Assembly: GCA_963781585.1 (NCBI GenBank)
Contig: CAWAGQ010000004.1
Coordinates: forward strand, 288,001 to 352,000
Length of the DNA stretch: 64,000 nt
From: an uncultured Gemmatimonadaceae bacterium
GTDB lineage: Bacteria > Gemmatimonadota > Gemmatimonadetes > Gemmatimonadales > Gemmatimonadaceae
Reading direction: 5' to 3'
The notes under the pieces are model-generated. The model saw nothing but the letters and a program-made list of their open reading frames with translations, searched no databases and was not told the DNA's origin. The translations under genes were made by a program, and so were the position numbers. Within the stretch, counting starts at the first letter, position 1, and each line of letters starts with the position of its first letter. Shown one piece after another: positions 4,359-62,859 of the stretch.

Positions 4359-6454
4359 TGGGTTTCTCGTTCCTCACCCCGCTGTTCGCGATCGGCGCCG
4401 CCGCCATCGCCGTGCCCATCCTTGTGCACCTGGTGCACAAGGAGCGCAAGGAAGCCACGCCCTTTCCCTCGCTGATGTTCCTGCGGCGCACGCCGTATCA
4501 GCACTCGCGGCGCCAGCGCATCCGCGACTGGTGGCTGTTTGCCCTGCGTGCGCTCGCCGTCCTGCTGCTGGTGGCGGCCTTCTCCCGCCCGGTTTTCAGT
4601 CGCGTCTCGGCCGCCGCGCCGACGCAGGCCGGCGGCCGGGAGGTCGTGCTGCTGGTGGATCAGTCGCTCAGCATGCGCTACCCCGACAGATGGACCCGGG
4701 CCACCGATGCCGCGCACCGGGTGATCGACGGCCTCGGCGTGCGTGACCGGGCCACCATCATCCTGTTCGACGACGCCGCGCATGCCGTCAACGAAGCCAC
4801 GGGAGACCATGCCGTGCTCCGCGCGGCCATCGACTCGGCGCGTCCCACCGACGGGTCCACCCGATACGCGCCGGCGCTGACGCTCGCCAGGCGCATCGTG
4901 GCCGGGTCGCGGCTGCCGAAACGCGAGGTGATGGTCGTCAGCGACTTCCAGCGCTCGGGATGGGACCTGACCGAAGAGGCACGTCTCCCCACGGGCACCG
5001 AAATCGAGACCACCGATGTGGCCCAGGGTGAAGTGCACGACCGCGCCGTGCGGTCCGTGGAGCTCCGGCGGGAAACGTCGGGACGCACCGAACGCATTGC
5101 GGTCAGCGTCCGCGTCTCCAATGCCGGACCGGCGGCGCACGGTGTCGAGGCTCGGCTGGAGGTCGGAGGTCGCACCGTACAGACCTCGCGGTTCGATGTG
5201 GCCGCCGACGCCGGTGGCCTGGTCACTTTTTCGCCGGTGCCCGTGCCCCAGACCCCGCAGCGCGCTGCGGTGCGTCTTGCCCCGGATGTCCTGAAGGATG
5301 ACGACGGCTTTTCGTTCATCCTCGAACGGGCGCCGAGCGTGGGAGTGCTGGTGGTTCAGCCCGCTCAGGCCCCCGCCGACCGCGTCCTCTACCTCCAGCG
5401 CGCCCTCGAGATCGGCGACCGGCCGTCGTTCGATCTCAGCGTCCGAACTGTGACGCAACTGACGCCAAATGACTTTACGGGGAAGAAGGTCGTGATTCTC
5501 AACGACGCCGGCTTCCCGTCGGGCGAGGCCGCGCGACGCCTCGAACGATTCGTACGTGGTGGCGGAGGGCTCATTGTGGCACTTGGCGAGATGTCCGGGC
5601 CACGGTCCTGGCCGGCGGGTGCCCAGAACCTGTTGCCGGCGCCGGTCACCGATCCGATCGATCGCCTGGGCGAAAGGGGCGCCATTCTCGGGTTCATCGA
5701 CCGCAGCCACCCGGCCCTGGCGTTGTTCAGCGCGTCGCGCAGCGGCGATCTCTCGGCCGCGCGGTTTTTCCGCTACCGGCCCATTCCTACCGACAGTGGT
5801 GTGTTGGCGCGCTTCGATGACGGGTCGGCCGCGCTCGCGGAGCGACAGGTCGGTCGCGGCCGCGTACTCGTGTGGGCGTCATCGTTCGATGCGCTCTGGA
5901 ACGACCTGCCAAGGCAGCCGGTGTTTCTGCCCTTCGTGCACCAGCTGGTTCAGTACGGCGCCGGCTACCGGGCGCAGCGCAGTGGTTACGAAGTGGGCGA
6001 TGCGGTGGATCTTTCAGTCGCCGGTTCGGACGCCGCCGTGACGGATACCAGTGTCCACGCCATCCTGAACGAGGCCTTCGTGGCCGTCGCACCGTCAGGT
6101 GCCCGCCTCCGCATCGGAGGCGAAGGGAACCCGAGCGCGCTGCTTCCGCGCGAGGCTGGCATCTATGAGGTGCGACGCGAGGGAGCGCCGGGCGAGTTGC
6201 CGCGCCTCGTCGCGGTCAACCTGGCCTCCCGGGAACTGGAGTTTGCCCGGTTCGACCCGACGCGCCTAACGAACGCGGTCGCGCCGGCACCGGGGGCGAC
6301 AACGAGCGCGGCCCAGACTACCGCCCCAGACCCTGCCGCCCGCGAACGCCAACAGTCGCTTTGGTGGTATCTTTTGCTTATCGTCACCTGTCTGCTCGTT
6401 GGCGAGTCCATACTCGCCGACCGCATTTCACGCCGCCGGCCGGCCGTCAGTTAG
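4358..6454 (+). CDS. BatA N-terminal / von Willebrand factor A domain membrane protein
   Basis: BatA-type N-terminus (FLTP...VPILVHL...FPSLMFL...LRALA...AFSRP), MIDAS DQSLSM, SDFQ, and a C-terminal TM helix LWWYLLLIVTCLLVGE. Confidence 0.88.
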   Translation: MGFSFLTPLFAIGAAAIAVPILVHLVHKERKEATPFPSLMFLRRTPYQHSRRQRIRDWWLFALRALAVLLLVAAFSRPVFSRVSAAAPTQAGGREVVLLVDQSLSMRYPDRWTRATDAAHRVIDGLGVRDRATIILFDDAAHAVNEATGDHAVLRAAIDSARPTDGSTRYAPALTLARRIVAGSRLPKREVMVVSDFQRSGWDLTEEARLPTGTEIETTDVAQGEVHDRAVRSVELRRETSGRTERIAVSVRVSNAGPAAHGVEARLEVGGRTVQTSRFDVAADAGGLVTFSPVPVPQTPQRAAVRLAPDVLKDDDGFSFILERAPSVGVLVVQPAQAPADRVLYLQRALEIGDRPSFDLSVRTVTQLTPNDFTGKKVVILNDAGFPSGEAARRLERFVRGGGGLIVALGEMSGPRSWPAGAQNLLPAPVTDPIDRLGERGAILGFIDRSHPALALFSASRSGDLSAARFFRYRPIPTDSGVLARFDDGSAALAERQVGRGRVLVWASSFDALWNDLPRQPVFLPFVHQLVQYGAGYRAQRSGYEVGDAVDLSVAGSDAAVTDTSVHAILNEAFVAVAPSGARLRIGGEGNPSALLPREAGIYEVRREGAPGELPRLVAVNLASRELEFARFDPTRLTNAVAPAPGATTSAAQTTAPDPAARERQQSLWWYLLLIVTCLLVGESILADRISRRRPAVS

Positions 6455-6465
6455 GAGCAGCGACC

Positions 6466-10169: not shown

Positions 10170-10293
10170 GTACGCTGCGCCTTCCTCTGCGGTGTCACCG
10201 CTGCCAGAGGAGGTGTAGCTTGTGGCCGATGGCCACGCTCGCTCACGATTCGGCGGGAAGTGGTCGGGGTTGGTGCTTCACCGAGGAGGATCC

Positions 10294-18963: not shown

Positions 18964-20136
18964 TCAGCTCTCGACCTCGAACACACCCGCGGCGCCCATT
19001 CCGCCGCCCACGCACATGGTAACCAGCCCGAAACCGCCGCCGCGGCGACCGAGCTCGTGGACCAGCTGAGTCGCGAGCTTGGTGCCCGTGGCGCCTAACG
19101 GGTGCCCGAGAGCGATGGCCCCTCCGTTTACGTTCAGAATCTCGTCGCGGAACCCGAGCTCCCGCTGCACGGCGAGGGCCTGCGCGGCAAACGCCTCATT
19201 GAACTCGATCAGGCGGATCTCGTCCAGTGCGCGGCCGGCGCGCGCCAGGGCCTTCGGTACAGCGCGAATCGGGCCGACGCCCATGATGTCGGGCGCCACC
19301 CCGGCCACCGCGTAGCCGGCGAAGCGGGCCAGTACCGGCGCGCTCAGGGCCCGCGCGCGCTCGGCGCTCATCATCACCACCGCGGCGGATCCGTCGGAGT
19401 AGGGGCTCGAATTTCCGGCCGTGACCGTGCCATCGACCTTGAACGCCGGCGGCAGCTTCGCCAGCCGCTCCAGACTGGTGTCGCTGCGCACGTTTTCGTC
19501 GCGCACAAAGAACCCCTGCTCGACCTCCTGGCGCGGTCCCTGCCACCGTACCCGTTCCACCGGCACGGGCACGATCTGGTCCGCGAATGCATCACCAGCC
19601 AGCGCGCGCGCGGCCTTCTCATGGCTCGCCAGCGCGTAGGCATCCTGATCGGCGCGGCTTACCTTCCACCGCGCGGCGACACGCTCGGCGGTGAACCCCA
19701 TGGCGATCATGTCTTCCGTCATGTCGGCGTGCAACCGCGGGTGAAAGCCCGACATGGGCACCTGACTCATCATCTCCACGCCGCCGGTGAGCACGACATC
19801 GGCCATCCCCGTCATGATGGCCTGCGCGCCCATGGCGATTGTCTGCAAGCCTGACGAGCAGAAGCGATTGACGGTGCAGGCGGGGACTTCAACGGGCAGC
19901 CGGGCGCGCAGCACGGCCAGACGCGCGACGTTCAGACCCTGGGACGCCTCCGGCATGGCGCAGCCCCACAGTACGTCATCGATCTCCCGCGGGTCCACAT
20001 TCGCACGCTTGATGGCCTCCTGCATCACGAGTGCAGAGAGGTCGATGGGATGCACCGCGGCAAGGGCGCCGTCCTTCTTCCCACGCCCAACCGCCGTGCG
20101 AACGGCGCTGACGATCACCGCGTCCCGCATGGTCAC
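18964..20136 (-). CDS. fadA: Acetyl-CoA C-acyltransferase (thiolase)
   Basis: [33 protein letters not shown]. The start may be ATG 20130. Confidence 0.93.
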
Positions 20137-22595: not shown

Positions 22596-25199
22596 ATGGT
22601 CCTGTCCGCATTGCTCGTCACATGGGTCAGCGGTGTCACGTCACCGGCAGCTCGGCTACCGGACGACTCGCTCATGGCGCCCGGTGTGTCGCACGCGCTG
22701 GCGGAGCGGCGTGCTACGCGAATCCGCAGCGTGCGATACGCTCTGACGCTGGATGTGACGCGCCCCGACACAGCTGTGGGACGGGTGACCATTCGCTTCA
22801 ATCTCAGGGGGCCAGGGGACGTCATCCTCGACTTCCGCGGGCCATTGCTGAGGCAGGCACTCGTCAACGGTGTCGCGCAACCGTCGCTGACCTTCAACGG
22901 TCAGCACGTCCGAATTCCGGGAGCGCTACTCACTAACGGCCCCAACCGCATCGACTTCGAGTTCTCGGCGCTGATTGCCGCGGCTGGCGCGAGCATCATT
23001 CGTGTGCGCGACCCATCCGATGGAGCGACGTATCTCTACACGCTTCTCGTCCCGAGCGATGCCGAGCAGCTTTTCCCGTGCTTCGACCAGCCTGACCTGA
23101 AGGCGCGGATTGCTCTCACCCTGACCACGCCGCTGGGTTGGCGCGCAGTGGCGAACGGCGTCGTTACGCGAGCCGACTCGTCATCGCGCGGCACCACCTA
23201 TGTGTTCCGTGAGTCGGAGCCGATCAGCACCTACCTCATTGCGTTCGCAGCCGGTCCATGGGCGGCTCTCACCGCCACCAACACAGCGCGTCCGATCACG
23301 CTCTACGTTCGCAGGTCGCGTGCGCGCGAGGTGGATGTCGACTCGATCATCCACGATGCGGATCGCGCGGTGTCATGGCTGTCGCGGTACTTCGCCTACC
23401 GTTATCCGTTCCAGAAGCTCGACATCCTGCTGGCGCCCGCTTTTCCGTTCGGAGGCATGGAACACCCTGGCGCCATCTTCTTCAGCGAGGAGCGATTCAT
23501 CTTCCGAGAGCCGCCAACGCTTACGCAGCGGCTCGGTCGTACCGCCACGGTTTACCATGAAGTGGCGCATCAGTGGTTCGGCGACCTGGTGACCATGCGA
23601 TGGTTCGACGACCTCTGGCTCAAGGAGGGTTTCGCGACCTACATGGCTGCGAAGATGCAGGCCTCGCTCGACTCCAGCGCCGGGGCCTGGGAGTCATTCT
23701 ATCTGCGGAACAAGCCGGCGGCCTACGCGGTCGATGTGAGCGGCGGCACGACGGCAATCTGGCAACCTCTCGACAATCTCGATCAGGCAAAGAGCAACTA
23801 CGGCGCCATCGTCTACAACAAGGCACCGGGTGTCCTGAAGCAGCTCAACTTCCTTGTCGGCGAGTCCGCCTTCCAACGCGGCCTCCAGCAATTCGTGCAC
23901 GCGCACGCGTTCGCCAACGCCACCTGGCGCGATCTGCTCGACGCCATCGCGGGCGTCCGTGGAAACCCGCTGCGCAACTGGGGCGAGGACTACATCACAA
24001 GAGCCGGGATGCCGGTGCTGGAGCAACGTCTGGAGACCAGTGACGGGCGGGTGACTCGGCTCGCCATCGTCCAGCATCCGGCGCAACTCGCGGTATCCGG
24101 CGCGCGGCCCTGGCCTATCCGCACCGAGCTGGTGCTCGCTTCGCCCGATGGGGTTCTGACTCGACTGCCATTGACCATCACTTCCGACACGACGCTGGTG
24201 AGCGCGGCCGTCGGCTTGCCCGCTCCGGCATGGATGTTCGCCAACGCCGATGACAACGCATACGCGCTGGTCCTGCTCGACTCCGTGAGCGTGAGCTGGC
24301 TCGAACACTCGCTGGGCCGGGTTCAGGTCGCCTTCGACCGCGCGATGCTGTGGGGAGCGCTCTGGGATCAGGTGCGGGAGGCGTCCCTCAGTCCGCGGCG
24401 GTTCATTCGCCTGGCGGTCCGCGAGCTGCCGCATGAACCCGACGAACAGATTCTGGCGAGTGAACTCAATCACCTGACGCGCGCGGTGACGGCGTACATC
24501 GATGGCGCGACCCGCGACACGCTGCTTCCGGACGTGGAGCGAATGCTTCTCGTCGGCGCGTCGGACTCGACAAGGTCGTATGGCGTGCGGCGATCGGAGC
24601 TGGCCGCGCTGATTCGGGTAGCGGCGAGCCGCACGATGGTCGATACCCTCGACGCGCTGCTGGACCGGGACCGGTTGGCGGGACTGCCCTTGGGTCCGTC
24701 GACGCGATGGTCCATCGTCACCCGGCTGGTAGCGCTTGGAGCGCCTTCGGCGGCGCGCCGTTTGGTGGACGAAGCGCGGCGCGATTCGTCCGCCGAGGGA
24801 GCGCGCCGGAAATTCGTGGCCGCTGCCGCGGCCCCACGCGCTGCGGTCAAGGCAGACTACTTCGCGCGCTACTTCGCTGACAGTACGCTCAACGAGGATT
24901 GGGCGACTGCCAGTCTCGATGCGTTCAACGCCGTGGAGTCGAGAGACATCACCGCGCCCTTCCTGCGCCCGGCACTCGATTCGCTGCCGTGGATACAGCG
25001 CAACCGCCGCATCTTCTTTCTGGGATCCTGGATCAATGGGTTCCTGGGCGGGCAGCTCGACGAGGCGGCGTTAGGCATCGTACAGCGCTTTCTCGGCGAG
25101 CGCGCAGACCTGCCTGACGATCTGCGGTTGAAGGTGCTGCAGGCGGCGGACGAACTGGAGCGCACGGTGCGCATACGGCGTCGGTTTTCCAATGAGTGA
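22596..25199 (+). CDS. M1 family zinc aminopeptidase (PepN-like, ERAP1-type C-terminus), probably exported
   Basis: FPCFDQPDLKA, GGMEH, HEVAHQWFGDLVT..WLKEGFA, IVYNKA. Hydrophobic N-terminus. Confidence 0.93.
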   Translation: MVLSALLVTWVSGVTSPAARLPDDSLMAPGVSHALAERRATRIRSVRYALTLDVTRPDTAVGRVTIRFNLRGPGDVILDFRGPLLRQALVNGVAQPSLTFNGQHVRIPGALLTNGPNRIDFEFSALIAAAGASIIRVRDPSDGATYLYTLLVPSDAEQLFPCFDQPDLKARIALTLTTPLGWRAVANGVVTRADSSSRGTTYVFRESEPISTYLIAFAAGPWAALTATNTARPITLYVRRSRAREVDVDSIIHDADRAVSWLSRYFAYRYPFQKLDILLAPAFPFGGMEHPGAIFFSEERFIFREPPTLTQRLGRTATVYHEVAHQWFGDLVTMRWFDDLWLKEGFATYMAAKMQASLDSSAGAWESFYLRNKPAAYAVDVSGGTTAIWQPLDNLDQAKSNYGAIVYNKAPGVLKQLNFLVGESAFQRGLQQFVHAHAFANATWRDLLDAIAGVRGNPLRNWGEDYITRAGMPVLEQRLETSDGRVTRLAIVQHPAQLAVSGARPWPIRTELVLASPDGVLTRLPLTITSDTTLVSAAVGLPAPAWMFANADDNAYALVLLDSVSVSWLEHSLGRVQVAFDRAMLWGALWDQVREASLSPRRFIRLAVRELPHEPDEQILASELNHLTRAVTAYIDGATRDTLLPDVERMLLVGASDSTRSYGVRRSELAALIRVAASRTMVDTLDALLDRDRLAGLPLGPSTRWSIVTRLVALGAPSAARRLVDEARRDSSAEGARRKFVAAAAAPRAAVKADYFARYFADSTLNEDWATASLDAFNAVESRDITAPFLRPALDSLPWIQRNRRIFFLGSWINGFLGGQLDEAALGIVQRFLGERADLPDDLRLKVLQAADELERTVRIRRRFSNE

Positions 25200-37577: not shown

Positions 37578-38675
37578 TCAGACACGAACCGCGCCAGCGT
37601 GCACGACACACATTGGCCCGGCGATCTCATCCTCGAGGCTGAGGGTGATGGTCCCGTCCTTGAGGAGGTGCTGCAGCAGCGTCAGGCAGTTCTTGCTGAA
37701 CATCAGGCTGGCGTGGAAGGGCACGGAGCTGGGCAGATTGGCCGCTCCCACGATCGTCACGCCGTTCGACTCCACGACCTCGTCCGCCCGGGTGAGCTCG
37801 CAGTTGCCCCCCTGCTCGGCGGCCAGGTCCACGATCACCGAGCCCGGACGCATGGAGGCGACCATGCCGGCGGTGATGAGGCGCGGTGCCGCCCGTCCCG
37901 GGATCTGCGCGGTGGTGATGACGAGGTCCTGGTCCTTGATGTGTTTCCCGATCGCGTCGAGCGTGCGCTGGTGCTCGTCGTCGCTCTGCGCGCGGGCGTA
38001 TCCCCCCGCCGCTTCGGCGTCGGCCTGCGGTTCCGGACCCACGAACGTGGCGCCTAACGACATCACCTGTTCCCGGGCGGCGGCACGGATATCGAATCCG
38101 GAGACCACCGCGCCGAGCCGGCGGGCGGTCGCGATCGCCATCAAACCGGCCACTCCGGCCCCGATGACGAATGTCTTGGCCGGAGGGATGTTGCCGGCGG
38201 CCGTGGTGAGCATGGGGAGCAGCTTCGCCGCGTGCTCGGCCGCCAGCAGCACCGCCTTGTAGCCGGCGATGGTCGCCTGGGACGACAGAATGTCCATCGA
38301 CTGCGCCCGGGTGATGCGTGGGACGCGCTCGAGCGCGAGCGCGGAGACGTTGCCCTGCGCGAGTACCTGGAGGAGATCCGCGCTCGTGGCGGCGGGTAGC
38401 AGCGAGATGAGGAGGGCCCCCGACCGGATCCGCCGGGCCTCCGCCAGCGACGGCTTCTGCACCTTGACCACGACGTCGGCGCTGAACGCGTCTCCGGGAT
38501 CACCGAGTCCGGCGCCGGCTTCCGCGTAGGCCGCGTCGGGGAAGTACGCCGGCACGCCGGCCCCCCGCTCCACGACCACCTCCACGCCCGCCTTCACGAG
38601 GCGTCCTGCGCTCTCCGGCGCGACGGCCACGCGCCGTTCTCCTGCGGCCGTTTCCTTCGGGACTCCGATGCGCAT
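37578..38675 (-). CDS. pntA: NAD(P) transhydrogenase alpha subunit part 1 (soluble NAD(H)-binding dI)
   Basis: MRIGVPKE..ERRVA, PRITRAQSMDILSSQ, GAGVAG, GGYA, IVDLAAEQGGNC. Confidence 0.96.
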   Translation of the reverse strand: MRIGVPKETAAGERRVAVAPESAGRLVKAGVEVVVERGAGVPAYFPDAAYAEAGAGLGDPGDAFSADVVVKVQKPSLAEARRIRSGALLISLLPAATSADLLQVLAQGNVSALALERVPRITRAQSMDILSSQATIAGYKAVLLAAEHAAKLLPMLTTAAGNIPPAKTFVIGAGVAGLMAIATARRLGAVVSGFDIRAAAREQVMSLGATFVGPEPQADAEAAGGYARAQSDDEHQRTLDAIGKHIKDQDLVITTAQIPGRAAPRLITAGMVASMRPGSVIVDLAAEQGGNCELTRADEVVESNGVTIVGAANLPSSVPFHASLMFSKNCLTLLQHLLKDGTITLSLEDEIAGPMCVVHAGAVRV

Positions 38676-44016: not shown

Positions 44017-45995
<1,979 letters not shown>

Positions 45996-46943: not shown

Positions 46944-48955
46944 CCGCGGGGCCCTCCGATGCGCGGGCCGTCGGGGCGCGCGAGCCGCGTCGGGCGGCGG
47001 AGCGCGGCGCGGGCGTCATGGTGTGCGCCTTTCTCCTGCTGGTGTACTTCGTGTCGCTGGCGCCCGACGTGACACTGTGGGATGCGGGCGAGTTCAACGC
47101 CGCAATCGCCACGCTGGGCATTCCTCATCCGCCGGGGACGCCCCTCTATGTACTCGTAGCCCACGTGTGGGCGCGCCTGTTGCCGCTGTTATCGCAGGTG
47201 GTGGCGGTGAACGCGCTCTCGGCCGTTGCCACGGCTGCGGCGTGTGGACTGCTGGCGCGGCGGATCACAGCCTGGACGGGGAGCGCCGTGTCGGGAATCG
47301 CCGCAGGAGTGACCGCGGGAATCATGTTTTCTGTATGGCAGAACGCCACGGAAACCGAGGTGTACGCGCTCTCCTTGTTGCTGGCGATATCGCTGCTGAT
47401 CGTCGGCGATCGTGCCGGCCGGACGGGATCGGTGCGGCACGCGGTGCTGCTGGTGTACCTGATGGCGCTGTCGATTCCACTGCAGATCAGCGCGCTGGTG
47501 TCGGCGCCCGCGGCCATTCTGCTCGCCAGCACCACCGACGCGGGGCGGATCTCCCGCGAGCGCCTTGTCTCGTTAGGTGCCGCCTTCGCGATGGTGGTCG
47601 GCCTCGGGGTGGGAGCCGCCTGGCTGGTGGTGGCCGGGGCCCTCGTGCTGTTCGGCCTGTCCGGCTACCGCGTGGTACGACGGCAGGCGAGCAACGTGGC
47701 GGCCTGGCGGCTGATAGGGGCCGTGGCGGTGGGAGCCAGCGCCGTGGTGTTCATGCTGATCCGTGCGGCGCACGACCCGGGAGTCAACCAGGGCGATCCG
47801 GCCAGGTGGCGCGCCCTGGCCGATGTCGTCGCCCGACGCCAGTACGACGTCCCTCCGCTCTGGCCGCGCCGCGCACCCATCTGGCTGCAGCTCGGCAATC
47901 TCGTGCAGTACAGCGACTGGCAGGTAGCGGCCGGGCTCGACGCGTCGCCCGGACCATCGTGGCTCCGCACCCCCTGGACCATTGCGTTCGGCCTCCTGGC
48001 CGCAGTCGGCGCCCGGTGGCACTGGAACCGCGAACGCCGGAGTGCCACCGCCATGGCGCTGCTGTTCGCCTGCGCCTCGTTAGGTGTGGTGGGCGTACTC
48101 AATCTGCGCGCCGGACCGAGCATCGGCATCGGCGTCCTGCCGGCCGACGCCGTCCACGAGCCGCGCGAGCGGGACTATTTCTTCGCGTTGGCCTTCGTCG
48201 TGGCGGGTGCGTGGGCGGGAATGGGTGGCGTGGCGGTGGCCGGTCGTCTCGGGAGACGACGGCGGTGGCTCGGTCTGGCAACGGCGGTGCCGCTCGCCCT
48301 CAACTGGCAGGCCACCGACCGCCGCCGACAGCCCGATGCCTCGCTCCCCGACGCCCTGGGCGTCTCGCTCCTGTCGTCCTCGCCGCCGCGTGCGGTACTG
48401 CTGCTCGCCGGCGACAACGACTCGTACGCGACGTGGTTTGAGCAGCAGGTGCACGATCTGCGCAAGGACGTCACGCCGATAACGCTTCCCCTGCTCGGCG
48501 CCGACTGGTACCGCGCCGAACTGGCGCGCCGGGATTCACTCCTGCCAGCGCGCGCGGTGTCGGAGTGGGTCGGTACCGAAGCCACCCTTCGGTTCATTCG
48601 CGAGCAAGCAGCGCGCCTCGGCCGACCGGTTGTCGCGGCCGTTTCGATTCCTCGACAGACCCGCGAGGCGATCGCACCGGACTGGGTGCTGAGCGGAATG
48701 GTGTTTGTGGAGCGCGGGGCGGACCGGGGCGCTCCGACGGTCATCGTGTCCGGCGCGCCTGTCGATCCACGCGCGGCCCGGACCGCTGCACGAGACATCG
48801 CGGCCCGGGTGCCTCAGCTGTCACGTCCGGCTCGGGACCCTGCGGGCACGTACGTCCAGCAGCTGCTGAGCTGCCCGTCGCGCGCGGTGCGCGAAATCGA
48901 CTCCATCTCTACCGGTCGCGACGGTTTACTTGATTCGTGGTGTAACCTCAAGTAG
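46940..48955 (+). CDS. DUF2723 / TMEM260-like GT-C membrane glycosyltransferase
   Basis: WDAGEF..LGIPHPPGTPLY, ETEVY, RERDYFF, GDND. Multiple TM helices. Confidence 0.85.
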   Translation: MTAGPSDARAVGAREPRRAAERGAGVMVCAFLLLVYFVSLAPDVTLWDAGEFNAAIATLGIPHPPGTPLYVLVAHVWARLLPLLSQVVAVNALSAVATAAACGLLARRITAWTGSAVSGIAAGVTAGIMFSVWQNATETEVYALSLLLAISLLIVGDRAGRTGSVRHAVLLVYLMALSIPLQISALVSAPAAILLASTTDAGRISRERLVSLGAAFAMVVGLGVGAAWLVVAGALVLFGLSGYRVVRRQASNVAAWRLIGAVAVGASAVVFMLIRAAHDPGVNQGDPARWRALADVVARRQYDVPPLWPRRAPIWLQLGNLVQYSDWQVAAGLDASPGPSWLRTPWTIAFGLLAAVGARWHWNRERRSATAMALLFACASLGVVGVLNLRAGPSIGIGVLPADAVHEPRERDYFFALAFVVAGAWAGMGGVAVAGRLGRRRRWLGLATAVPLALNWQATDRRRQPDASLPDALGVSLLSSSPPRAVLLLAGDNDSYATWFEQQVHDLRKDVTPITLPLLGADWYRAELARRDSLLPARAVSEWVGTEATLRFIREQAARLGRPVVAAVSIPRQTREAIAPDWVLSGMVFVERGADRGAPTVIVSGAPVDPRAARTAARDIAARVPQLSRPARDPAGTYVQQLLSCPSRAVREIDSISTGRDGLLDSWCNLK

Positions 48956-50295: not shown

Positions 50296-51147
50296 ATGAC
50301 GATGCCCGGATTGGATCAGGTCACGCAGAAGCTTGAACAGGTGGATGCGGCGGCCGACGTCGTGCGACGTCGCTCGGGCGTCGTGCCGCAGGCTGCCGTG
50401 ATCATCGGGACTGGGCTGGGTGCGCTGGCAACGCGCATCGAATCCGCGACCGTGATCCCGTACGCGGACATCCCGGGCTTCCCACGTCCCACCGTGGAAA
50501 CGCACGCCGGCCGCCTGCTGTGCGGTGAACTGTCCGGACGCCAGGTGGTGGCGATGGAAGGGCGCTTCCACCGGTACGAGGGATACTCTCTGCAGCAGGT
50601 GACCTTCCCGGTCCGGGTGCTGCGCGCGTTAGGCGCACGGGTCTTGGTGGTCTCGAATGCGGGCGGCGGGATGCACCCCCTGTGGGAGGCCGGCGACCTG
50701 ATGCTGCTTGCCGATCACATCAATCTGCTGGGAGACAACCCGCTGGTGGGACCGAACGATGACCGCCTGGGTCCGCGGTTCCCGGACATGTCCGAGCCAT
50801 ACGATCCGGGACTGCGGGCGCTGGCCAGGGAGGTGGCCGCGGCGCAGGGCATCCACCTGCGCGAAGGTGTGTACGTGGCGGTGAGCGGCCCGAACCTGGA
50901 GACGCGCGCCGAATACCGGATGCTGCGCGCGCTGGGCGCGGATGTGGTCGGCATGTCCACGGTTCCCGAGGTGATCGTCGCCGTCCACGGGGGGATGCGC
51001 GTACTGGGCCTCTCGATCATCACCGATCTGTGCCTGCCCGACGCGCTGGCTCCGGCCAGCGTGGCGGACATCATCGCCACCGCGGCGCGGGCCGAGCCGC
51101 ACCTGACCGCCGTGATCACCGGCGTGCTGCGGCGTCTCGACACATGA
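50296..51147 (+). CDS. Purine-nucleoside phosphorylase (trimeric type)
   Basis: GTGLG, GRFHRYEG, NAGGG, GPNLETRAE, VGMSTVPE. Confidence 0.93.
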   Translation: MTMPGLDQVTQKLEQVDAAADVVRRRSGVVPQAAVIIGTGLGALATRIESATVIPYADIPGFPRPTVETHAGRLLCGELSGRQVVAMEGRFHRYEGYSLQQVTFPVRVLRALGARVLVVSNAGGGMHPLWEAGDLMLLADHINLLGDNPLVGPNDDRLGPRFPDMSEPYDPGLRALAREVAAAQGIHLREGVYVAVSGPNLETRAEYRMLRALGADVVGMSTVPEVIVAVHGGMRVLGLSIITDLCLPDALAPASVADIIATAARAEPHLTAVITGVLRRLDT

Positions 51148-54100
51148 CCGCGCTCCGCCGGTATCGCGTGCTGCCAGCCGATCGGCCGGCCGACGATCTC
51201 GAGCGCGAGCTGCTGGAGCGCTGGCGCGACGAAGGGTTGTTCGAGCGCTCCCTGCAGGAGCGCGCGACCAGTGGAGCGCCGCCGTTCGTGTTCTTCGAGG
51301 GGCCGCCCACCGCGAACGGGCGACCCGGTATCCATCACGTCTTCTCGCGCACCATCAAGGACCTCTTCTGCCGGCACCGCCACATGCGCGGCTTCCACGT
51401 GCTGCGCAAGGCGGGATGGGATACCCACGGGCTCCCGGTGGAAATCGAGGTCGAGAAGGAACTCGGCATCAACGGCAAGCAGGAGATCGAAGCGTTAGGC
51501 GTGGAGGAGTTCAATCGTCGGTGCCGGGAGAGTGTCTTCCGGTATCGCAGCGAGTTCGAGCAGCTCTCGGAGCGCATCGCGTACTGGCTGGACTACGGCC
51601 ACCCCTACGTGACCTACTCCAACCAGTACATCGAGAGCGTCTGGTGGGCCCTCAAGACGCTCCATGCGAAGGAGCGCCTGTACCGGGGACACAAGATTCT
51701 TCCGTACTGTCCGCGCTGCGGTACCGCCCTGTCGAGCCACGAAGTGGCGCAGGGGTACGAGGACGTCGAGGATCCGAGCGTGTACGTGGCGCTGGAACTG
51801 CGGGCCGCCAGCGAGGAGGCGCCGTCTCCGTCCGGCGAGCAGGTGGTGGCGCCGGTGGGGGCGGGCGTAGCGACACCGGCGGACGGCTCGCGGCGCCGGT
51901 TGCTCGTGTGGACGACCACGCCGTGGACCCTGGTCTCGAACGTGGCGCTCGCCGTCCATCCCGACCTCGAGTACGTCGAGGTGCGCAAACGGAAAGGCGC
52001 CGACTGGACGTTGGTCCTCGCCGCGGCGCGGGCCGGCGCCGTGCTCGGTGACGACTACGCCGACCGGTGGGAGATCGTCGGGCGGCTCACGGGGCGCGAT
52101 CTGGTCGGCCGTCGCTACCGCCGTCCACTGGATTGGGTGCCGATTGCGCCGGGGAGTGGGGAACACGAACTGATCGTCGCCGGCGACTTCGTCTCGGCAG
52201 AGGACGGGAGCGGCATCGTGCATCTGGCACCGGCGTTCGGGGCAGACGACTACGCGATGGGTCGACGCCACGACCTCGCCTTCCTGCAGCCGGTCAATGC
52301 ACGCGGCGAGTTCGGCGAGGAGGTGCCGGTGGTGGCGGGGAAATGGATCAAGGACGCCGACCCGCTGATCATCGCCGAGCTGCGCCGCCGTGACACGCTG
52401 TGGAAGACGACCACCATCACGCACGCGTATCCGCACTGCTGGCGGTGCCGCACGCCGCTCTTGTACTACGCGCGCGGCTCCTGGTTCGTGCGCACGACCG
52501 TCCTACAAGGAGCAGATGCTCGCCCGCAACGCGCGCGTCGAGTGGCATCCGCCGGAGGTGGGAGAAGGACGTTTCGGTGAATGGCTGAAGAACAACATCG
52601 ACTGGGCGATCTCGCGAGACCGCTACTGGGGAACGCCGCTGCCGGTCTGGATCTGCGAGGAGAACGATCAGCACGTGGAGGTCATCGGTTCGTACGCCGA
52701 GCTCGCAACGAAGGTGGGAAAGACCCTTCCCGACGATTTCGATCCGCACAAGCCGTTCATCGACCAGTACCAGTGGCCGTGCCAGCGGTGCGCTGCCGCC
52801 GGCACGCCACGCACGACGCGCGCGGGGCAGGATCCCGGCGACGCACCGGCGCCACGCATGCGCCGGGTGCCGGAGGTCATCGACGCCTGGTTCGATTCGG
52901 GGTCGATGCCGTTCGCACAGTGGCACTTTCCGTTCGACAACCGGGAGATGATGTCCGCGCAGTACCCGGCCGACCTGATCGCCGAAGGCGTGGACCAGAC
53001 GCGCGGATGGTTCTACTCGCTGCTCGCGATCGCCACCGGGCTGGGGGACGCGCTGCCGCATAACGAGGACATCGCGAACAGGCCTCCGCATGCCGGCCGG
53101 CAGCCCGGCGCGGTGACGCTCGGCGCTCCTCGCAACAGCGAGCGCGTTGCGCCGTCCTACGACTCGGCTCCCTACCGGAGCGTGGTGGTCAACGATAACG
53201 TGCTCGACGCGACTGGCGTGAAGATGTCGAAGAGCCGGGGCAACGTGGTGGACCCGTGGGACGTGATGACCCGTCACGGCGCGGACGCGGTGCGGCTCTT
53301 TCTGGTTGCCGCAAGCCAGCTCGACGTCCCCCGGCGATTCGACGAGAACGCACTGCGTGAGACGGCCGCCCGGTTCCTGGTGACGTTGAAGAACGTCTAC
53401 AGCGGCATCTTCGCGCAGTACGCGAATTTCGGCTGGGAACTGTCGGATCGGGATCCGGCACCGGACCATCGCCCGTTGATCGACCAGTGGATCCTGTCGC
53501 GGACCCGCAGCGTCGAGCTCGAGGCCGACCGCCTGCTCGACGCGTGCGACGCCACGTCGGCCGCCCGCCTCGTCATGGGATTCGTCGTCGACGACGTCTC
53601 CAACTGGTACGTCCGGCTGAACCGCCACCGCTTCTTCAGCGTGGCCGGCGACGACAACCGATCCGCGTTCGCGACCCTCCACGAATCGCTACTCGTCATC
53701 AGCCGATTGCTGGCGCCGTTCACGCCGTTCATCAGTGATCTGATCCATCGCGAGCTGGCCGACGAGAGCGTTCACCTGGCACCGTACGTTCGCACGCGCG
53801 CGTTCCCTCCGCACCCCGAGCTGGAGGCAGCGATGACGGAGGTGCGCGAGCTGTCGCGCCTGGGACGCGCAGCGCGGGAGGACGCCGCGGTCGCGGTAAG
53901 ACGGCCCCTGTCACGCCTTCTGTGCGTGGTTCCGGCTGCACACGTGGAGCGCGACCGACCCCTGTTACCGCTGCTGGCGCTCGAACTCAACGTGAAGGAG
54001 GTCGTACTGCTCACGTCGGCCGATGAGCTCGTTCGGCTCAATGCGAAGCCGAACTACCGTAGTCTCGGCAAGCGGTTCGGCAAGAGCACACCACTCGCGG

Positions 54101-54570: not shown

Positions 54571-54572
54571 AC

Positions 54573-57526: not shown

Positions 57527-59431
57527 GTGAACACGTCCAGGTACGCGGAGCTGTTCCTCAGCGAGAGCCGTGACAACCTCGTGTCCATCAACGAGGCGCT
57601 GATGGAGTTGGAGCGGGACCCGGCGGCCCCCGCGCACATCGACAGTCTGTTCCGCGGCGTCCATACGCTGAAGGGCATGGCGGGCGTGATGGGCCACAGC
57701 GCCGTGGTGGAGCTCGCCCATGAGCTGGAGACGGTTCTGGCACTGGTCCGCGACGGGGCCCGCGCGCTCACTCCCGACGATCTGGCGCTGCTGTTCGACG
57801 CGGTGGACGTCCTGGAGATGGTCGTCGAGCGCGTCGGCTCGGGGGAAGGCGCCGACGCCATGCCTGACGTGGCGGCGTTATGCGAGCGGCTGCGGTCTGC
57901 CAGCGGGGCCGCTGGTCCTCCGGTCTGGACGGCGACCGCCGAGCACCGGGTGGCGCTGCCGCCCGGCGACGGCGTGGCCGTGCACGTGAGCCTGTCGCCC
58001 GACGCGCCGCTCAAGGGGGCACGCGCGCTCCTCATCCTCCAGCGCCTGCGTTCGTTAGGCGAGATCACCGCCATGTCGCCGGCGGAGAGTGCGCTGCGCG
58101 AAGACAGCTTTGGCGGCGAATTCTCGTTCCGGGTGCGCACCGATGCGCCCGACGAGCAGCTGGCTGCCACGGTACGCGACGCCGGATACGTGCACACCGT
58201 CCGGGTGCGACGCGAGACGACGCCGGCGTCGGGAGCCGGACAGGCGGCGGAGCGGGCGGACGCCGCCTGGCTGTCGGGGGGTCTGAAGGCACCGCTGCAA
58301 CGCTACGTGCGCATCGACGTGCAGAGGCTCGACGGCCTGATGAATCTGGTCGGCGAGCTGGTGATCGCGCGCGGCCGGCTGGCCCGGGCGATCGCCTCCC
58401 ACGTCGACCCCGAGCTCGACGAAGCCGGCGCCACGGTCGCGAATCTGGTAGGCGTGCTGCAGGACGACATTCTGGACAGCCGGATGGTGCCGGTGTGGCA
58501 GGTTTTCGATCGGTTTCCGCGGGTGGTGCGAGACGCCGCGCGGACGCTGGGGAAGGAGATCGAGTTCGTCATCGAAGGACGCGAGATCGAGCTCGATCGC
58601 GCGTTGCTCGAACAAATCGGAGAACCGCTGGTGCACCTGCTGCGAAATGCGGTGGACCACGGCATCGAATCGGCGGCTGCGCGCAGGGAGAAGGGGAAGC
58701 CGGCCGCAGGTCGGCTGGTCCTCGGTGCCTCGCGCGACCGCTCGGCGGTGGTGATCCGCGTCACCGACGACGGGCGGGGCATCGATCGGCGAGAGATTCT
58801 CCGGAGGGCGCGGGCGGACGGCAGTGTGGATGACGAAAAGACGGATCTGACCGACGACGAGGTGTTGCGCCTGATCGCCCGACCGGGGTTTTCGACCGCC
58901 GAACAGGTGACGAATCTCTCGGGGCGGGGGGTCGGTGTGGATGCGGTGGTGAGTCGGATCCGCGCCCTGGGCGGCTCCGTGGAGCTGCGCAGCGAACCGG
59001 GACGGGGCACCACGATCGCCCTGCGGCTCCCGGTGACGCTGGCGATCATTCCGGCCCTTCTGGCACGTGCCGAGCAGGAGACATTTGTGCTCCCGCTCAC
59101 GCATGTCAGGGAGACGCTCCACCTCACCCGACACGTGGTGCGTCAGGTCCGGGGTCGGGACGTGCTGGTATTGCGGGATGACATCCTCCCGCTCCTCAGC
59201 TTGCGGGCGCTGGTAGGCCTTCCAACCCGCGACGCAGAGGGGAGCCAAGTCGTCGTATTGGAGATAGCGGACCGCCGAACCGGACTCGTGGTGGACCAAC
59301 TCCTGGGGCAGCAGGAGGTCGTGGTGAAGCCATTCGATCCGGTGCGTGGTGCCGCTGCGTGTTTCAGCGGCGCGACGATCCTGGGTGACGGCGCGCCGGC
59401 GCTCATTCTCGAGGCCACGAATCTGGTGTAG
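57527..59431 (+). CDS. cheA: Chemotaxis histidine kinase CheA
   Basis: FRGVHTLKG (Hpt), P2 domain, LMNLVGELVI, HLLRNAVDHGIE, DDGRG, PGFSTA, SGRGVG, C-terminal CheW domain. Confidence 0.96.
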   Translation: MNTSRYAELFLSESRDNLVSINEALMELERDPAAPAHIDSLFRGVHTLKGMAGVMGHSAVVELAHELETVLALVRDGARALTPDDLALLFDAVDVLEMVVERVGSGEGADAMPDVAALCERLRSASGAAGPPVWTATAEHRVALPPGDGVAVHVSLSPDAPLKGARALLILQRLRSLGEITAMSPAESALREDSFGGEFSFRVRTDAPDEQLAATVRDAGYVHTVRVRRETTPASGAGQAAERADAAWLSGGLKAPLQRYVRIDVQRLDGLMNLVGELVIARGRLARAIASHVDPELDEAGATVANLVGVLQDDILDSRMVPVWQVFDRFPRVVRDAARTLGKEIEFVIEGREIELDRALLEQIGEPLVHLLRNAVDHGIESAAARREKGKPAAGRLVLGASRDRSAVVIRVTDDGRGIDRREILRRARADGSVDDEKTDLTDDEVLRLIARPGFSTAEQVTNLSGRGVGVDAVVSRIRALGGSVELRSEPGRGTTIALRLPVTLAIIPALLARAEQETFVLPLTHVRETLHLTRHVVRQVRGRDVLVLRDDILPLLSLRALVGLPTRDAEGSQVVVLEIADRRTGLVVDQLLGQQEVVVKPFDPVRGAAACFSGATILGDGAPALILEATNLV

Positions 59432-59502
59432 CGACATGGTGCGGAACGGTGAGGCTGCAGCCGCGCCGCTCAACGCGTGACACCCACGGTTGGAGAAACG
59501 GA

Positions 59503-60123: not shown

Positions 60124-60159
60124 CGCGGCGGGCGTGCGCGTCTCCCCGGTGAACTGAGG

Positions 60160-62859
60160 ATGTCGCTTCCCACGGTGTTCCTCTCGGAGCGGGACCGCGA
60201 AGTCCTGCGGAGCTTCGCGCTGCGCGTCGACCCCGCGGATGCCGGATCGCACAACAACCTGGGCGTGCTCTACTACAACAAGGGCATGATCCCGGAGGCG
60301 GTCGAGGCTTTCACGCGCGCGCTCACCCTCGACCCGCAGATGTCGACCGCCGAACGCAATCTGCGCATCGCGTGGTGCGACAGCGGCGCCTTCGAAGAGC
60401 AGGTGAGGGCGCTTGGCGAACGTCTCGCGGCCGACGCGGCCGATCGGGACGCTCGTGACGCGCTGGCGAACGCGTATCTGATGGCCGGCGATTTCGACCG
60501 GGCGGTGGTGGAGCTTGAGCGGCTTGCCGACGCGCAGCCCGATGACGTGGACACCATCGTGCGCCTCGCCCGCGCGGAGCAGCGCCTCGGACATATGGAC
60601 GCGGCGTCGACCTGGCTGCGGCGCGCCCTCGGCTATCGCGAAAGCGACCCGCAGCTCCTGATGCAGTTCGCCGACGTCTCCTATCATCGCGGCCTCGATG
60701 CCGACGCTCTGGCGGCGCTGGAGCGGGTCGTGGAGCACGCCCCGCACCTGGCCGAGGCCCACTACCTGCTGGGGTTCGTGCTCGGTGATCTGGGACGGCA
60801 CGAGGAAGCGCGCGAAGCCACGCGGCGGGCGCTGCGGCTCAATCCGTCGTTAGGCAGGGCGCAGGCGAACCTGTCGCTGGGGCGTGACGGCCCGCTGGCG
60901 ACCCCGCCGGCCGAGGGCCACAACGAACCAGCACCCCTCGCAGGGGGCGCGCTGGCGCACTTCAATCTCGGCATCGCCTTTCGCCAGAAGGGCTACTACC
61001 AGGAGGCGCTCCGCGAGTATCGACTTGCCCTCGACCGCGGTGAAGATCGGGGCCTCGTCACCCAGGCGATGGCGGAAGTCCACCTCCTGACCCGCGAAAC
61101 CGGAGCGGCGGTCACGCTCTACGACCGGCTGGTTGGCAGCGCACCCGACAGCCCCAAGCTGTGGAACGAGCGCGGTGTGGTGCTGCATCAGGCCGGCCGG
61201 ATCGCGGACGCCCGCGCCAGCTACGAGCGCGCGGTCGGTGCGGATCCGGCCTATGCGCTCGCGCTGAACAACCTCGGTGTGGCACACTACCACGCCGGCC
61301 GCCACGATCTGGCGTGCGACGCGTTTCGCCAGTCCATGCTGGAGCAGCCGGCATTCGTCAAGGCCCGGCTCAACCTCGCGCTGCTGCTCTTCCGGCGGAA
61401 GGAGTTCGCGCTCTGCCTGGAAGCCTACCGACAGGTGCTGAATCTCGAGCCGGACCACGCGGTGGCGTGGAACGGCATCGGCCTGGTGCTCTCGGAACTG
61501 CACCAGATCGAGGATGCCCGCAACGCGTTCGGCCGCGCCATCGACGCGCGCCCCGACTACGCCGAGGCGCACTACAACCTCAGTTTCGCCCTGTCGCACC
61601 TCGGCGACTACGCCGGCGGCCTGCGCGAAACGAAACGCGCGCTGGAACTGGACCCGTTCTACGTTCCGCAGAAGTTCGAGCTCGCCATCGATCTCCAGTA
61701 CGAGAACCCGCGCGTGGCGATCGCACCGGAGCTGGGCGCCGACCAGCGACTGGACGGCGCGGTGGAAGAGTTCACGCTGGATGTCGGCGCGCTCGAGACC
61801 TTCTTCGACCAGCTGGCGCCCGCGACCCACGAGGAGCCGCCCGACGCTCCTGGCGGTCCGTCGTATGGGGTCGCGCGCGCGGCGGTGGCCGCGGGGCAGT
61901 TGCCGGCAGCTGCCGCCGAGACAAACCGTGTGCTCGCGGCCGGCGGAGCGCGTGGCGAGGGACTCGGGCTGCTCGGCGGCATCTTCATGCGACAGGGCGC
62001 GTTTGGCGAGGCCCTGGATCGCTTCCGTCAGGCGCGCACGGCGGACGCGACAGACCAGAGCGCGGCCATGGGTGAGGTGCGCGCGCTGCTGCTGCTGGGA
62101 CGTGGGAGCGAGGGGAGTGACCTGGCCGAGGACCTGGCCGCGCGGGCGGATTCCGATGTGGAGGCCCTGCTGCTGGTGGCGCAGGTGCGCGCCGAGCGGG
62201 GTGCACACGGCCCGGCCCTGGCTGCCCTCGATGCGGCGCGCCGCCTGGCTCCGGCGCGCGCCGACGTCCAGAAGGAGATCGGCGACGTGGCGCGTGCCAC
62301 CGGTGACGACGAGCGCGCGCTGGCGGCGTACCGCGCCGCGGTGGCGCTGGACCGCGGATTCGCGGCGGCGCGCGTGGAACTCGCAGCGTTGCTTCGTGGC
62401 CGGGGTAAGGTCGCCGAGGCCGAGCGGGAGCTGGAGGCAACGGTGCGCGATCTTCCGGCCTGTATGGACGCCGCGCTCGAGCTGGCCGACCTGCGCCGGG
62501 CACGGGGACGCCCCGAGGACACAATCGATGTCCTGGTGGAGGTCCTGCGTCGCGATCCGTACCAGCTGGACGTGCTCGTGTCGTTAGGCGAGTCGCTGTT
62601 CCAGTGCGACCGGCGGGGCGACGCCGCCGTGGCCTTCGCCCGGGTCCTCCGCTTCGACCCCGATCACGTGGGCGCCCTCTACTTCGACGGCGTGCTGCTC
62701 GGGAAGCAGCGGCGGTTCGAGGAGGCGGTGGCGCGCTGGCACCGGGTCATCGACCTCGAGCCGGCCAGCGACTACGCCAGGCGCGCGCGTCGCGACGCGC
62801 GGATCGCCGCAGACCTCCAGCGCATCTTCGTGGCGCACGAGCGCCGGGGAGCGGCCTAG
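60160..62859 (+). CDS. Large multi-TPR protein
   Basis: Many canonical TPRs (HNNLGVLYYNKG, AHFNLGIAF, ALNNLGVAH, AHYNLSFAL). Confidence 0.92.
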   Translation: MSLPTVFLSERDREVLRSFALRVDPADAGSHNNLGVLYYNKGMIPEAVEAFTRALTLDPQMSTAERNLRIAWCDSGAFEEQVRALGERLAADAADRDARDALANAYLMAGDFDRAVVELERLADAQPDDVDTIVRLARAEQRLGHMDAASTWLRRALGYRESDPQLLMQFADVSYHRGLDADALAALERVVEHAPHLAEAHYLLGFVLGDLGRHEEAREATRRALRLNPSLGRAQANLSLGRDGPLATPPAEGHNEPAPLAGGALAHFNLGIAFRQKGYYQEALREYRLALDRGEDRGLVTQAMAEVHLLTRETGAAVTLYDRLVGSAPDSPKLWNERGVVLHQAGRIADARASYERAVGADPAYALALNNLGVAHYHAGRHDLACDAFRQSMLEQPAFVKARLNLALLLFRRKEFALCLEAYRQVLNLEPDHAVAWNGIGLVLSELHQIEDARNAFGRAIDARPDYAEAHYNLSFALSHLGDYAGGLRETKRALELDPFYVPQKFELAIDLQYENPRVAIAPELGADQRLDGAVEEFTLDVGALETFFDQLAPATHEEPPDAPGGPSYGVARAAVAAGQLPAAAAETNRVLAAGGARGEGLGLLGGIFMRQGAFGEALDRFRQARTADATDQSAAMGEVRALLLLGRGSEGSDLAEDLAARADSDVEALLLVAQVRAERGAHGPALAALDAARRLAPARADVQKEIGDVARATGDDERALAAYRAAVALDRGFAAARVELAALLRGRGKVAEAERELEATVRDLPACMDAALELADLRRARGRPEDTIDVLVEVLRRDPYQLDVLVSLGESLFQCDRRGDAAVAFARVLRFDPDHVGALYFDGVLLGKQRRFEEAVARWHRVIDLEPASDYARRARRDARIAADLQRIFVAHERRGAA

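Follow-up and report, generated by a model that had tools for sequence, protein, structure and literature searches.

A 64,000-nucleotide stretch of DNA from an uncultured Gemmatimonadaceae bacterium, here called the window, raises the question of why one octamer, CGTTAGGY, recurs in its genes. The window corresponds to positions 288001 to 352000 of contig C4 in the assembly labeled G000 (5.72 Mb, 17 contigs, 67% GC). A sequence-only reading had counted 15 copies and had proposed that a signal at the DNA level overrides codon preference. Every coordinate and strand that it gave proved correct: 11 sites carry CGTTAGGC and four (38885, 45407, 47571, and 48078) carry CGTTAGGT. In 100 dinucleotide-preserving shuffles of the window, CGTTAGGY occurred 1.19 times on average (standard deviation, 1.07; maximum, 4), and none of the 100 reached 15. 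As described, 14 sites lie on the coding strand as xCG-TTA-GGY, encoding [P/A/S]-L-G, and the site at 6264 is antisense, with CGC-CTA-ACG on the gene strand. We found that CGTTAGGC, together with the weaker form CGTCAGGC, is a genome-wide DNA word under a strong, sequence-specific, and strand-neutral force that acts on resident DNA.

The assembly represents two related genomes over part of its length (contamination, 7.19%), and all genome-wide counts for G000 pool both of them. CGTTAGGC, a non-palindromic word whose reverse complement is GCCTAACG, occurred 1442 times, 724 times on the plus and 718 times on the minus strand. With an order-2 Markov expectation of 44.3 copies (ratio, 32.5; z, 208), it is the top overrepresented 8-mer of the genome. 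Shuffling of synonymous codons within each gene (n = 20) left 53.8 ± 6.7 copies, compared to 1096 observed in called genes, and even this expectation is inflated because TTA codons created by the word are retained in the shuffle. Markov models and codon-preserving shuffles were among the tests that the sequence-only reading had suggested, and both came out in its favor. Nearly half of the TTAG tetramers genome-wide (1442 of 3056; 47%) and of the TTA codons in called genes (697 of 1490; 47%) were part of the word. A maximal-order Markov list was led by tandem heptamer runs; the (AGGCCAA)n runs of G000 gave 255 matches of AGGCCAAA, 136 of them outside called genes.

All eight positions of the word are specified, most of its one-letter variants being found at 0.3 to 0.9 times their expectation. 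C at position 4 yields CGTCAGGC, the weaker co-enriched form, which was counted 1519 times (2.7-fold over expectation); about 77 of these are added by a CRISPR-like array on contig C7 (G000:C7:396088-401560; 77 repeats with a period of 70 to 74 bp), whose repeat contains CGTCAGGC. T at position 8 was found in 183 copies (7.8-fold), T at position 1 in 79 copies (5.2-fold), and T at position 6, giving CGTTATGC, in 180 copies where 38 were expected (4.8-fold), the sole enriched transversion variant. The form ending in T is a secondary or decaying variant of CGTTAGGC. The motif originally proposed was therefore right as to its enrichment and wrong in its degenerate last letter, the true word being the exact octamer.

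To describe its placement, genes were called crudely by GC content at third codon positions (GC3), which resulted in 4064 calls covering 82% of the DNA. Among the 1442 copies, 691 were in the sense frame xCG-TTA-GGC, 273 in the antisense frame xxG-CCT-AAC-G, 53 in the sense frame xxC-GTT-AGG-C, and 69 in the antisense frame xGC-CTA-ACG. The two frames in which the word would create a stop held none, and 356 copies lay outside called genes, that is, 25% of the copies in the uncalled 18% of the DNA. Of all [SPTA]-L-G tripeptides, whose use of TTA had been named as a further check, 697 of 4533 (15%) were written with the word, as were 273 of 862 x-P-N-[VADEG] contexts (32%) in the antisense frame; the two costlier open frames were filled to 1.7% and 2.9%. 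Frame filling tracks codon cost, not strand. Placement on the coding strand holds in the window, where it is due to peptide supply and codon cost, but it is not a strand rule genome-wide, given that the antisense frame is filled more completely than the sense frame. Since all four open frames and intergenic DNA are filled, the word is not a codon or peptide effect.

Leading and lagging genes were filled alike, to 16.5 and 15.5% in the sense frame and to 32.2 and 33.1% in the antisense frame, respectively, and of the intergenic copies, 86 were on the G-rich and 76 on the C-rich strand. Once gene strand was allowed for, no replication polarity of the word was found, in agreement with the earlier statement that it is not polarized by replichore. 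There were too few close pairs: gaps of less than 200 bp accounted for 1.4% of the total versus 5.0% under a Poisson model, and gaps of less than 1 kb accounted for 14.8% versus 22.6%. Only 16 pairs closer than 150 bp were present in the genome. The sites are single-copy, and flanking bases showed no more than weak preferences, at -1 (rarely C) and at +8 (G or A).

Orthologues revealed how the word had been written into genes. In the ftsH alignment column, A/S-L-G was found in G011, G002, G005, and G001 with Leu encoded by CTC, CTT, CTT, and CTG, respectively, and TTA was found in G000 and in G009, which reads GCG-TTA-GGC. Ten orthologue comparisons across window genes gave Leu nine times, Ile once, and Ser never, and all nine Leu codons were CTN except that of the G009 ftsH site (TTA). 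At conserved Leu positions, the word replaces CTN by two substitutions; at less conserved sites, neighboring residues were altered to fit it, such as PALSR to PSLGR or, in G009, V-H to V-R. An origin by deamination at a methylated C (CGTCAGGC to CGTTAGGC, changing TCA to TTA) was considered and rejected for the bulk of sites, as orthologues carried Leu in 9 of 10 cases and never Ser. The possible source words, CGTTGGGC (243 copies) and CGTCAGGC, were not depleted.

A comparison with the congener G001 was based on 414 kb of G000 aligned at 87.5% nucleotide identity. CGTTAGGC was identical in G001 at 77 of 105 copies, compared to 40% for all 8-mers, which ranks it third among the 2254 words that occurred 40 times or more (mean, 42%; standard deviation, 9.7%); conservation in relatives, another of the suggested checks, thus favored the proposed signal. 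CGTCAGGC was kept in 35 of 67 cases, and its one-letter neighbors were kept in 17 to 34%. The commonest differences between the two genomes were T/C at position 4 (8 sites), followed by C/T at position 8. Four of the eight T/C switches altered the protein (three Leu/Ser and one Asn/Asp), so that the DNA word is retained where the peptide is not. The claim of a DNA-level signal that beats codon preference is borne out by the filling of every stop-free frame on both strands and of intergenic DNA, by the CTN-Leu orthologues, and by conservation at silent positions.

Eight of the 11 CGTTAGGC copies in the window are common to G001. These are the antisense copy at 6264..6271 (minus strand; R-L-T in the frame of a BatA/VWA gene at 4358-6454, plus strand), which is exact in G001, and seven sense copies: 19093..19100 (minus) in a thiolase gene (18964-20136, minus; CCG-TTA-GGC, P-L-G), 33355..33362 (plus) in an arginase-family gene (TCG-TTA-GGC, S-L-G), 35116..35123 (minus) in a PntB gene (CCG-TTA-GGC, P-L-G), 50627..50634 (plus) in a PNP_UDP_1 phosphorylase gene (GCG-TTA-GGC, A-L-G), 51493..51500 (plus) in the N-terminal part of the IleRS gene (GCG-TTA-GGC, A-L-G; E-A-L-G-V with CTG in G002 and CTC in G009), 58053..58060 (plus) in cheA (TCG-TTA-GGC, S-L-G; R-A-L-A-E with CTC in G002), and 62582..62589 (plus) in a TPR-repeat gene (TCG-TTA-GGC, S-L-G; V-A-L-G-E with CTG in G002). 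The same TPR-repeat gene holds the sense copy at 60848..60855 (plus; TCG-TTA-GGC, S-L-G; P-A-L-S-R with CTA in G002), for which G001 has the T-ending variant, as it does for the sense copy at 38052..38059 (minus) in a PntA/AlaDH-type gene (TCG-TTA-GGC, S-L-G). At 25069..25076 (plus), sense in a peptidase M1 gene (GCG-TTA-GGC, A-L-G), G001 reads CGCTCGGC with the Leu codon CTC. The four CGTTAGGT sites are all sense and are located at 38885..38892 (minus) in a PD40-repeat gene (GCG-TTA-GGT, A-L-G), at 45407..45414 (plus) in ftsH (TCG-TTA-GGT, S-L-G), and at 47571..47578 and 48078..48085 (both plus) in a TMEM260-like gene (TCG-TTA-GGT, S-L-G, in each case); the last of them is the full word CGTTAGGC in G001.

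Some irregularities were observed in these genes. The isoleucyl-tRNA synthetase gene of the window is split into two overlapping open reading frames (51030-52580 and 52390-54570, plus strand; tRNA-synt_1 profile positions 2-200 and 200-361) by a frameshift or assembly indel, and ftsH of G001 contains four TGA stops. Upstream of the PntA/AlaDH-type gene, the minus strand carries a tandem of two full-length genes for PntB (transhydrogenase beta), at 33946-35487 and 35764-37152.

How widely the word is distributed was judged against a reversed-word control. Among 30 relatives, the T form (CGTTAGGC) was far above control in G001, G005, G009, G014, G015, and G030, and most of the others had about a tenth of the control count. 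G009 contained 6360 copies in 5.1 Mb; a 198.8-kb sample of it held 248 (1.25 per kb, 48 times expectation), and within the first 98.8 kb of the sample, filling of the four frames was 33, 77, 28, and 20%. Enrichment of the C form (CGTCAGGC) was approximately threefold in G000, G001, G009, G014, and G030; G010 and G016, which have a weak T form, showed it too. Genus g42 was enriched for the T form only. The word thus exists in one-letter dialects: T only (G121), T and C (G000 and G357), or mostly C (G016 and G010). A quick, unfinished tree of a single gene, ftsH, in which the row of G001 is long and unreliable, grouped G009, G000, G001, G016, and G015 as a clade with a support of 93, G010 being close to it and G005, G014, and G030 elsewhere, and it forces at least three changes of word state.

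The order was also surveyed by hand tally of the T form in an even sample of 401 genomes, those with at least 1.5 times the control being termed word-rich. This applied to 47 of the 401 genomes: 34 of 191 in family f1 (counting G000), 7 of 189 in f2, and 6 of 21 in f3. The highest counts were 7821 copies (G357) and 4469 copies (G161); the unpublished genomes G008, G088, G206, G260, and G359 appear only as word-poor rows of the tallies. No other hyperabundant dispersed word was found in the word-poor genomes G003 (400 kb) and G011 (60 kb), and G149 yielded heptamer tandem repeats only. The runs of G149 (loci L115-L134) consist of (AGGGTTC)n and (AGCAGAA)n and are followed by a conserved GGAAC..CCTCGG-like flank. 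The force behind the word is passed on within clades, and its gain or loss is rapid.

The word is not confined to this phylum. In soil Verrucomicrobia, it was examined as TCGTTAGGC (reverse complement, GCCTAACGA). When one genome per species was scanned for pairs of copies on the same strand at a distance of 300 to 330 bp, at least 130 stretches were obtained; among the 80 matches listed, 27 bore names in Gemmatimonad-, 31 bore names in Chthoniobacterales, Verrucomicrobi-, or Spartobacteria, and 22 were scattered others. Whole-genome counts in five Verrucomicrobia were 5186, 2410, 2512, 947, and 347, compared to 257, 256, 260, 272, and 458 for the reversed controls. The word was therefore present at 3.5 to 20 times the control in four of the five genomes.

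We noticed that the word coincides with a known recombination site. The integron core site has the consensus GTTRRRY and the inverse core RYYYAAC, as stated in passages of two sources (PMC3053210, PMC12901181), and part of a third names Gemmatimonadota and Verrucomicrobiota among the integron-bearing phyla (PMC8618304). Letters 2 to 8 of the word, GTTAGGC, are a perfect GTTRRRY, and GCCTAAC fits RYYYAAC. We estimate that a GTTRRRY match occurs in about 0.4% of 8-mers, which makes a chance coincidence unlikely. In word-poor relatives, copies are clustered. On G021:C95:1-24000, one occurs about every 550 bp on one strand, and G021:C43, G021:C80, and G019:C3 are similar. Most copies in these relatives form the 3' ends of imperfect palindromes of approximately 85 to 90 nucleotides that begin with GCCTAAC and recur every 500 to 700 bp on one strand; in G021 and G019, their bottom strands fold at z values of -6 to -7. 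Either intI or pieces of it adjoin the arrays on G021:C80 and G019:C26, and arrays of this kind account for at least 40 of the 65 copies in G021. The clustered copies are attC sites of integron cassette arrays. Viral-collection contigs with GC contents of 0.31 to 0.67 also carry same-strand arrays ending in the same 8-mer; among 17 loci with at least six words, 12 had all of them on one strand and 4 more had a single word on the other. The pair pattern of viral contigs therefore mostly reflects cassette-like arrays and says nothing clear on phages.

The copies in G000 are not attC sites. Neither an inverse-core partner at the window copies nor a hairpin beyond shuffles at the window ftsH copy (z, +0.94) was found. 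Genome-wide, G000 has eight GCCTAAC...GTTAGGC pairs (16 matches over both strands, the arrangement being self-complementary), of which one forms a convincing hairpin. A repeat element was rejected along with attC copies, as the flanks have no consensus beyond the weak preferences given above and a similar partner exists for just 59 of 355 intergenic copies. No word-based cassette array was found in G000, where the longest same-strand run is four copies, and none was obvious beside the intact intI at C7:185885-186829. IntI was above the cutoff in 18 of 31 relatives, word-rich and word-poor. Genomes above the cutoff include G000, G001, G014, G357, and the Chthoniobacterales G408, G409, and G412; IntI was not found in word-rich G005, G010, G015, and G410, and G009 had broken pieces only. 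A gene for a 303-amino-acid tyrosine recombinase is present in three identical copies (C7:172407-173237, C7:183006-183836, and C13:309021-309851); both copies on C7 are followed by an IS91-type (Y2) transposase gene, and the pair flanks the region beside the intact intI.

Within G000, the word follows base composition. Sense filling of [SPTA]-L-G climbed with gene GC3, from 4.8% at 0.70 to 0.75 to 25% above 0.87, while along this gradient the share of Leu written as TTA outside the word decreased from 1.2 to 0.3%. In both gene classes and 10-kb bins, the word was rarer in DNA of low GC or low GC3. The largest word deserts are housekeeping genes (argH, ispG, murB, gidA, parA, and parB), not islands, and they surround a switch in GC skew from minus to plus at gidA-parAB, the presumed replication origin. 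The GC3 link fits a force coupled to recombination or residence time: this pattern is expected if the force increases where local recombination is stronger or weak selection more effective, and the reverse is expected of translational selection. Contigs C5 and C8 are collinear at 82 to 92% identity, each with its own gidA-parA(-parB) origin region. In both, a stretch of some 80 kb (C5 ~270000-350000 and C8 ~270000-350000) has a GC content of about 0.62 and a gene GC3 of about 0.74, and their identity is lowest, at 82 to 85%, around the presumed origin.

Which protein reads the word? No gene was found whose presence follows it among IntI, RecC, ComEC, ComEA, methyltransferases, DUF559, and Vsr. 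C5 methyltransferases (PF00145) were present in 4 of the 31 genomes, N4/N6 methyltransferases (PF01555) in 17 but in neither G000 nor G001, PF02384 in 17 with none in G000 at that threshold, and DUF559 in 1; none of them tracked the word. Nor did Vsr, which was found in G000 only, on an island. The presence of methyltransferase or Vsr genes thus gives no support to the modification-linked origin that had been put forward for the motif. At the end of a 14-kb word-free stretch, G000:C7:477177-478451 encodes C5 cytosine methyltransferase and Vsr endonuclease domains in one frame of 790 amino acids.

An Eco57I/MmeI-type N6-adenine methyltransferase (~1076 amino acids) followed by an SNF2-family helicase (740 to 940 amino acids) was found in word-rich G000, G357 (C59), and G121 (C2). 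G000 has two such modules, at C6:141001-151000 (L270) and C2:154001-164000 (L271), and G009:C73 carries the methyltransferase only, at a contig end. Orthologues of this methyltransferase occur at the same identity of about 50% in word-poor G149, G397, G003, G006, and G011, and none of the family members examined was without one. As a conserved family gene present in rich and poor genomes alike, the pair was rejected as the on/off determinant. The two methyltransferase-helicase loci of G000 are 90% and 75% identical; at a third locus (C13:300001-312000), a PLD-SNF2 protein is paired with a different Eco57I-type methyltransferase. Two open reading frames beside comEA were also considered as candidates and discarded as wrong-frame, Arg-rich reads.

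The explanation that we tentatively regard as most likely is a drive of the DNA uptake sequence/uptake signal sequence (DUS/USS) type, in which uptake is coupled to recombination. Both the existence of a receptor and a bias at the step of uptake or recombination are inferred. The word would have been written into resident DNA by substitutions and then held by a force acting on double-stranded DNA. A surface or periplasmic part of the transformation machinery would prefer word-bearing DNA, imported fragments would replace homologous DNA, and word-bearing alleles would be overtransmitted until a density of about 0.25 to 1.3 copies per kb was reached. We favor this reading because uptake-biased transformation is the one established mechanism that, according to passages of one source, gives exactly this anatomy, including core-genome enrichment, strict conservation at permissive positions, and spacing tied to conversion tracts (PMC2397512). 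The likeness to DUS/USS lies in a short exact word in both orientations at about 0.25 to 1.3 per kb, placed in tolerant frames and intergenic DNA, with copies that are conserved. Rarity in DNA of low GC or GC3 may be another likeness, but the largest deserts are the housekeeping genes near the presumed origin and not islands. One-letter differences between lineages are a further likeness, and dialects of DUS reportedly exist in Neisseriaceae, where ComP is the uptake-sequence receptor of Neisseria. Competence genes are encoded as well: G000 has ComEC, DprA, two secretins, and a comEA-pilB-pilT-pilC cluster. Inverted-pair terminators, a feature of DUS/USS, were not seen in G000, which has the few close pairs given above.

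Several observations weigh against this reading. No candidate receptor for the word was found. ComEC was detected in 30 of 31 genomes, word-rich and word-poor, and in all five g42 genomes examined, weakly in the poorest (G397); ComEA was likewise detected in 30 of 31 and follows phylogeny, not the word. G018, which is among the poorest in the word, lacks both. Known uptake words are family-specific and stable across whole families, whereas this one is switched on and off within a single genus and is common to a second phylum: five species of g42 have 3244 to 4141 copies, and two have 66 and 8. An identical word that is hyperabundant in two phyla is unexpected of a "self" tag; its receptor would have to be transferable or shared. 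Uptake does not explain why the word matches the integron core. Word density showed a weak trend only with local identity between congeners (rho, 0.17; P = 0.077). Moreover, every property cited in favor of uptake is equally expected of a word that is read inside the cell.

Such an intracellular reader is the essence of an explanation modeled on highly iterated palindrome 1 (HIP1) of cyanobacteria, which we consider a close second, possible if doubtful. Here, a protein would bind or modify GCCTRACG/CGTYAGGC, and weak selection or biased repair would keep sites dense; the reader could be a methyltransferase, a restriction-like or defense module, a repair nickase, or a nucleoid protein. Scale and behavior match, as parts of two sources describe HIP1 as an octamer 15- to 300-fold overrepresented, placed by codon choice, and conserved between genomes (PMC5861425, PMC4390886). 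HIP1 (GCGATCGC) and alternate highly iterated palindromes resemble the present word in being hyperabundant octamers (32-fold in G000 and 48-fold in G009 for our word) that are absent from some group members. A periodicity of 10 to 90 kb has been reported for HIP1. An asymmetric 8-bp word with one R/Y position and an invariant A resembles the sites of modification systems; the specificities of Type IIG/IIL, Type III, and bacteriophage exclusion (BREX) systems are usually asymmetric, with one degenerate position and an invariant A. Flips within genera and the presence in a second phylum are easier to reconcile with a reader that moves horizontally than with a receptor for competence, the shortage of close pairs fits a signal whose effect saturates over distance, and the methyltransferase-helicase pair does occur in word-rich G000, G357, and G121. 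However, CGTTAGGC differs from HIP1 in not being palindromic, no candidate gene, methyltransferases included, tracks the word, the Eco57I-type orthologues extend to word-poor genomes, and no replacement for it was found in word-poor G003 and G011. We also know of no established mechanism by which a genome accumulates the site of its own modification system.

The core-site identity gives rise to two further explanations. In one, which we consider improbable, the copies are bare R-boxes read as attG-like sites by IntI, a relative, or a host partner, or else reflect a bias tuned to cassette ends. GTTAGGC fits GTTRRRY, the same 8-mer ends attC arrays in relatives and viral-collection contigs, and recognition by IntI conserved across phyla would explain one word in two phyla. 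In contrast to attC and attI, with which they share this core, the copies of G000 are bare and lie in ordinary genes without an inverse core, hairpin, cassette periodicity, word-built array, or link to intI, whose presence does not track the word. CGTCAGGC, which dominates in G016 and G010, has GTC in place of the crossover triplet GTT, sites in ftsH, ileS, and cheA would be harmful landing pads, and no route is known to us by which a tyrosine recombinase could create its site through point substitutions. The other, also unlikely, is that the cassette-end word is an exchange tag shared by soil bacteria of two phyla, either because import or recombination was tuned to the cassette core or because recombinase recognition spread to chromosomes as thousands of bare R-boxes. 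The Chi-like site named in the sequence-only reading would switch a helicase-nuclease of the RecBCD, AddAB, or AdnAB type from degradation to recombination and so protect the cell's own DNA. It would account for an octamer that occurs once per 2 to 4 kb, is conserved, and is rarer in atypical DNA, and Chi of Escherichia coli is similar in length and copy number. We consider it very improbable: the word shows no orientation bias, RecC (PF04257) turned up in one genome out of 31, which was not G000 (no search was made for AddAB or AdnAB), and one Chi sequence in two phyla would be unusual. FtsK-orienting polar sequences (KOPS) and architecture-imparting sequences are, like Chi, alike in octamer length and unlike the word, which lacks strand polarity. 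Hardly credible is an artifact or nonsignal, that is, a systematic error of base calling at modified sites or a side effect of codon use, peptides, or translation such as a regulatory TTA codon. Signs of assembly indels do exist in the split IleRS gene and the interrupted ftsH of G001, but enrichment recurs in at least 47 genomes of the order that were assembled separately, some of 300 to 780 contigs, and in four of five Verrucomicrobia. Replacement of CTN Leu by two substitutions, source words that are not depleted, the synonymous shuffle (54 versus 1096), and the filling of all four open frames and intergenic DNA speak against it as well.

Very few groups are known to have hyperabundant genomic words: in two proteobacterial families, DUS and USS steer gene exchange, and in cyanobacteria the function of HIP1 is still open after decades. 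In the literature, the present word was not found as a genomic signal, the top-ranked text matches being primer or oligonucleotide uses and supplements being outside the scope of the search; no relevant paper on uptake sequences or overrepresented oligonucleotides in Gemmatimonadota was found either. The present case adds a non-palindromic hyperabundant word that reaches 1.3 copies per kb in soil Gemmatimonadota that are uncultured; its hyperabundance in soil Verrucomicrobia and its identity with the integron cassette core site are apparently new. The on/off contrasts within single genera offer a clean comparative design for finding the reader, and word density can serve as a sharp marker when these genomes are binned or searched for foreign DNA. 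If the word is read inside the cell, it would represent a second HIP1-type system, one more open to study. If it is an exchange tag, cassettes and word-rich chromosomes would form one preferred DNA pool. If it biases uptake or recombination, it would shape gene flow, including the flow of cassettes, in soil communities.

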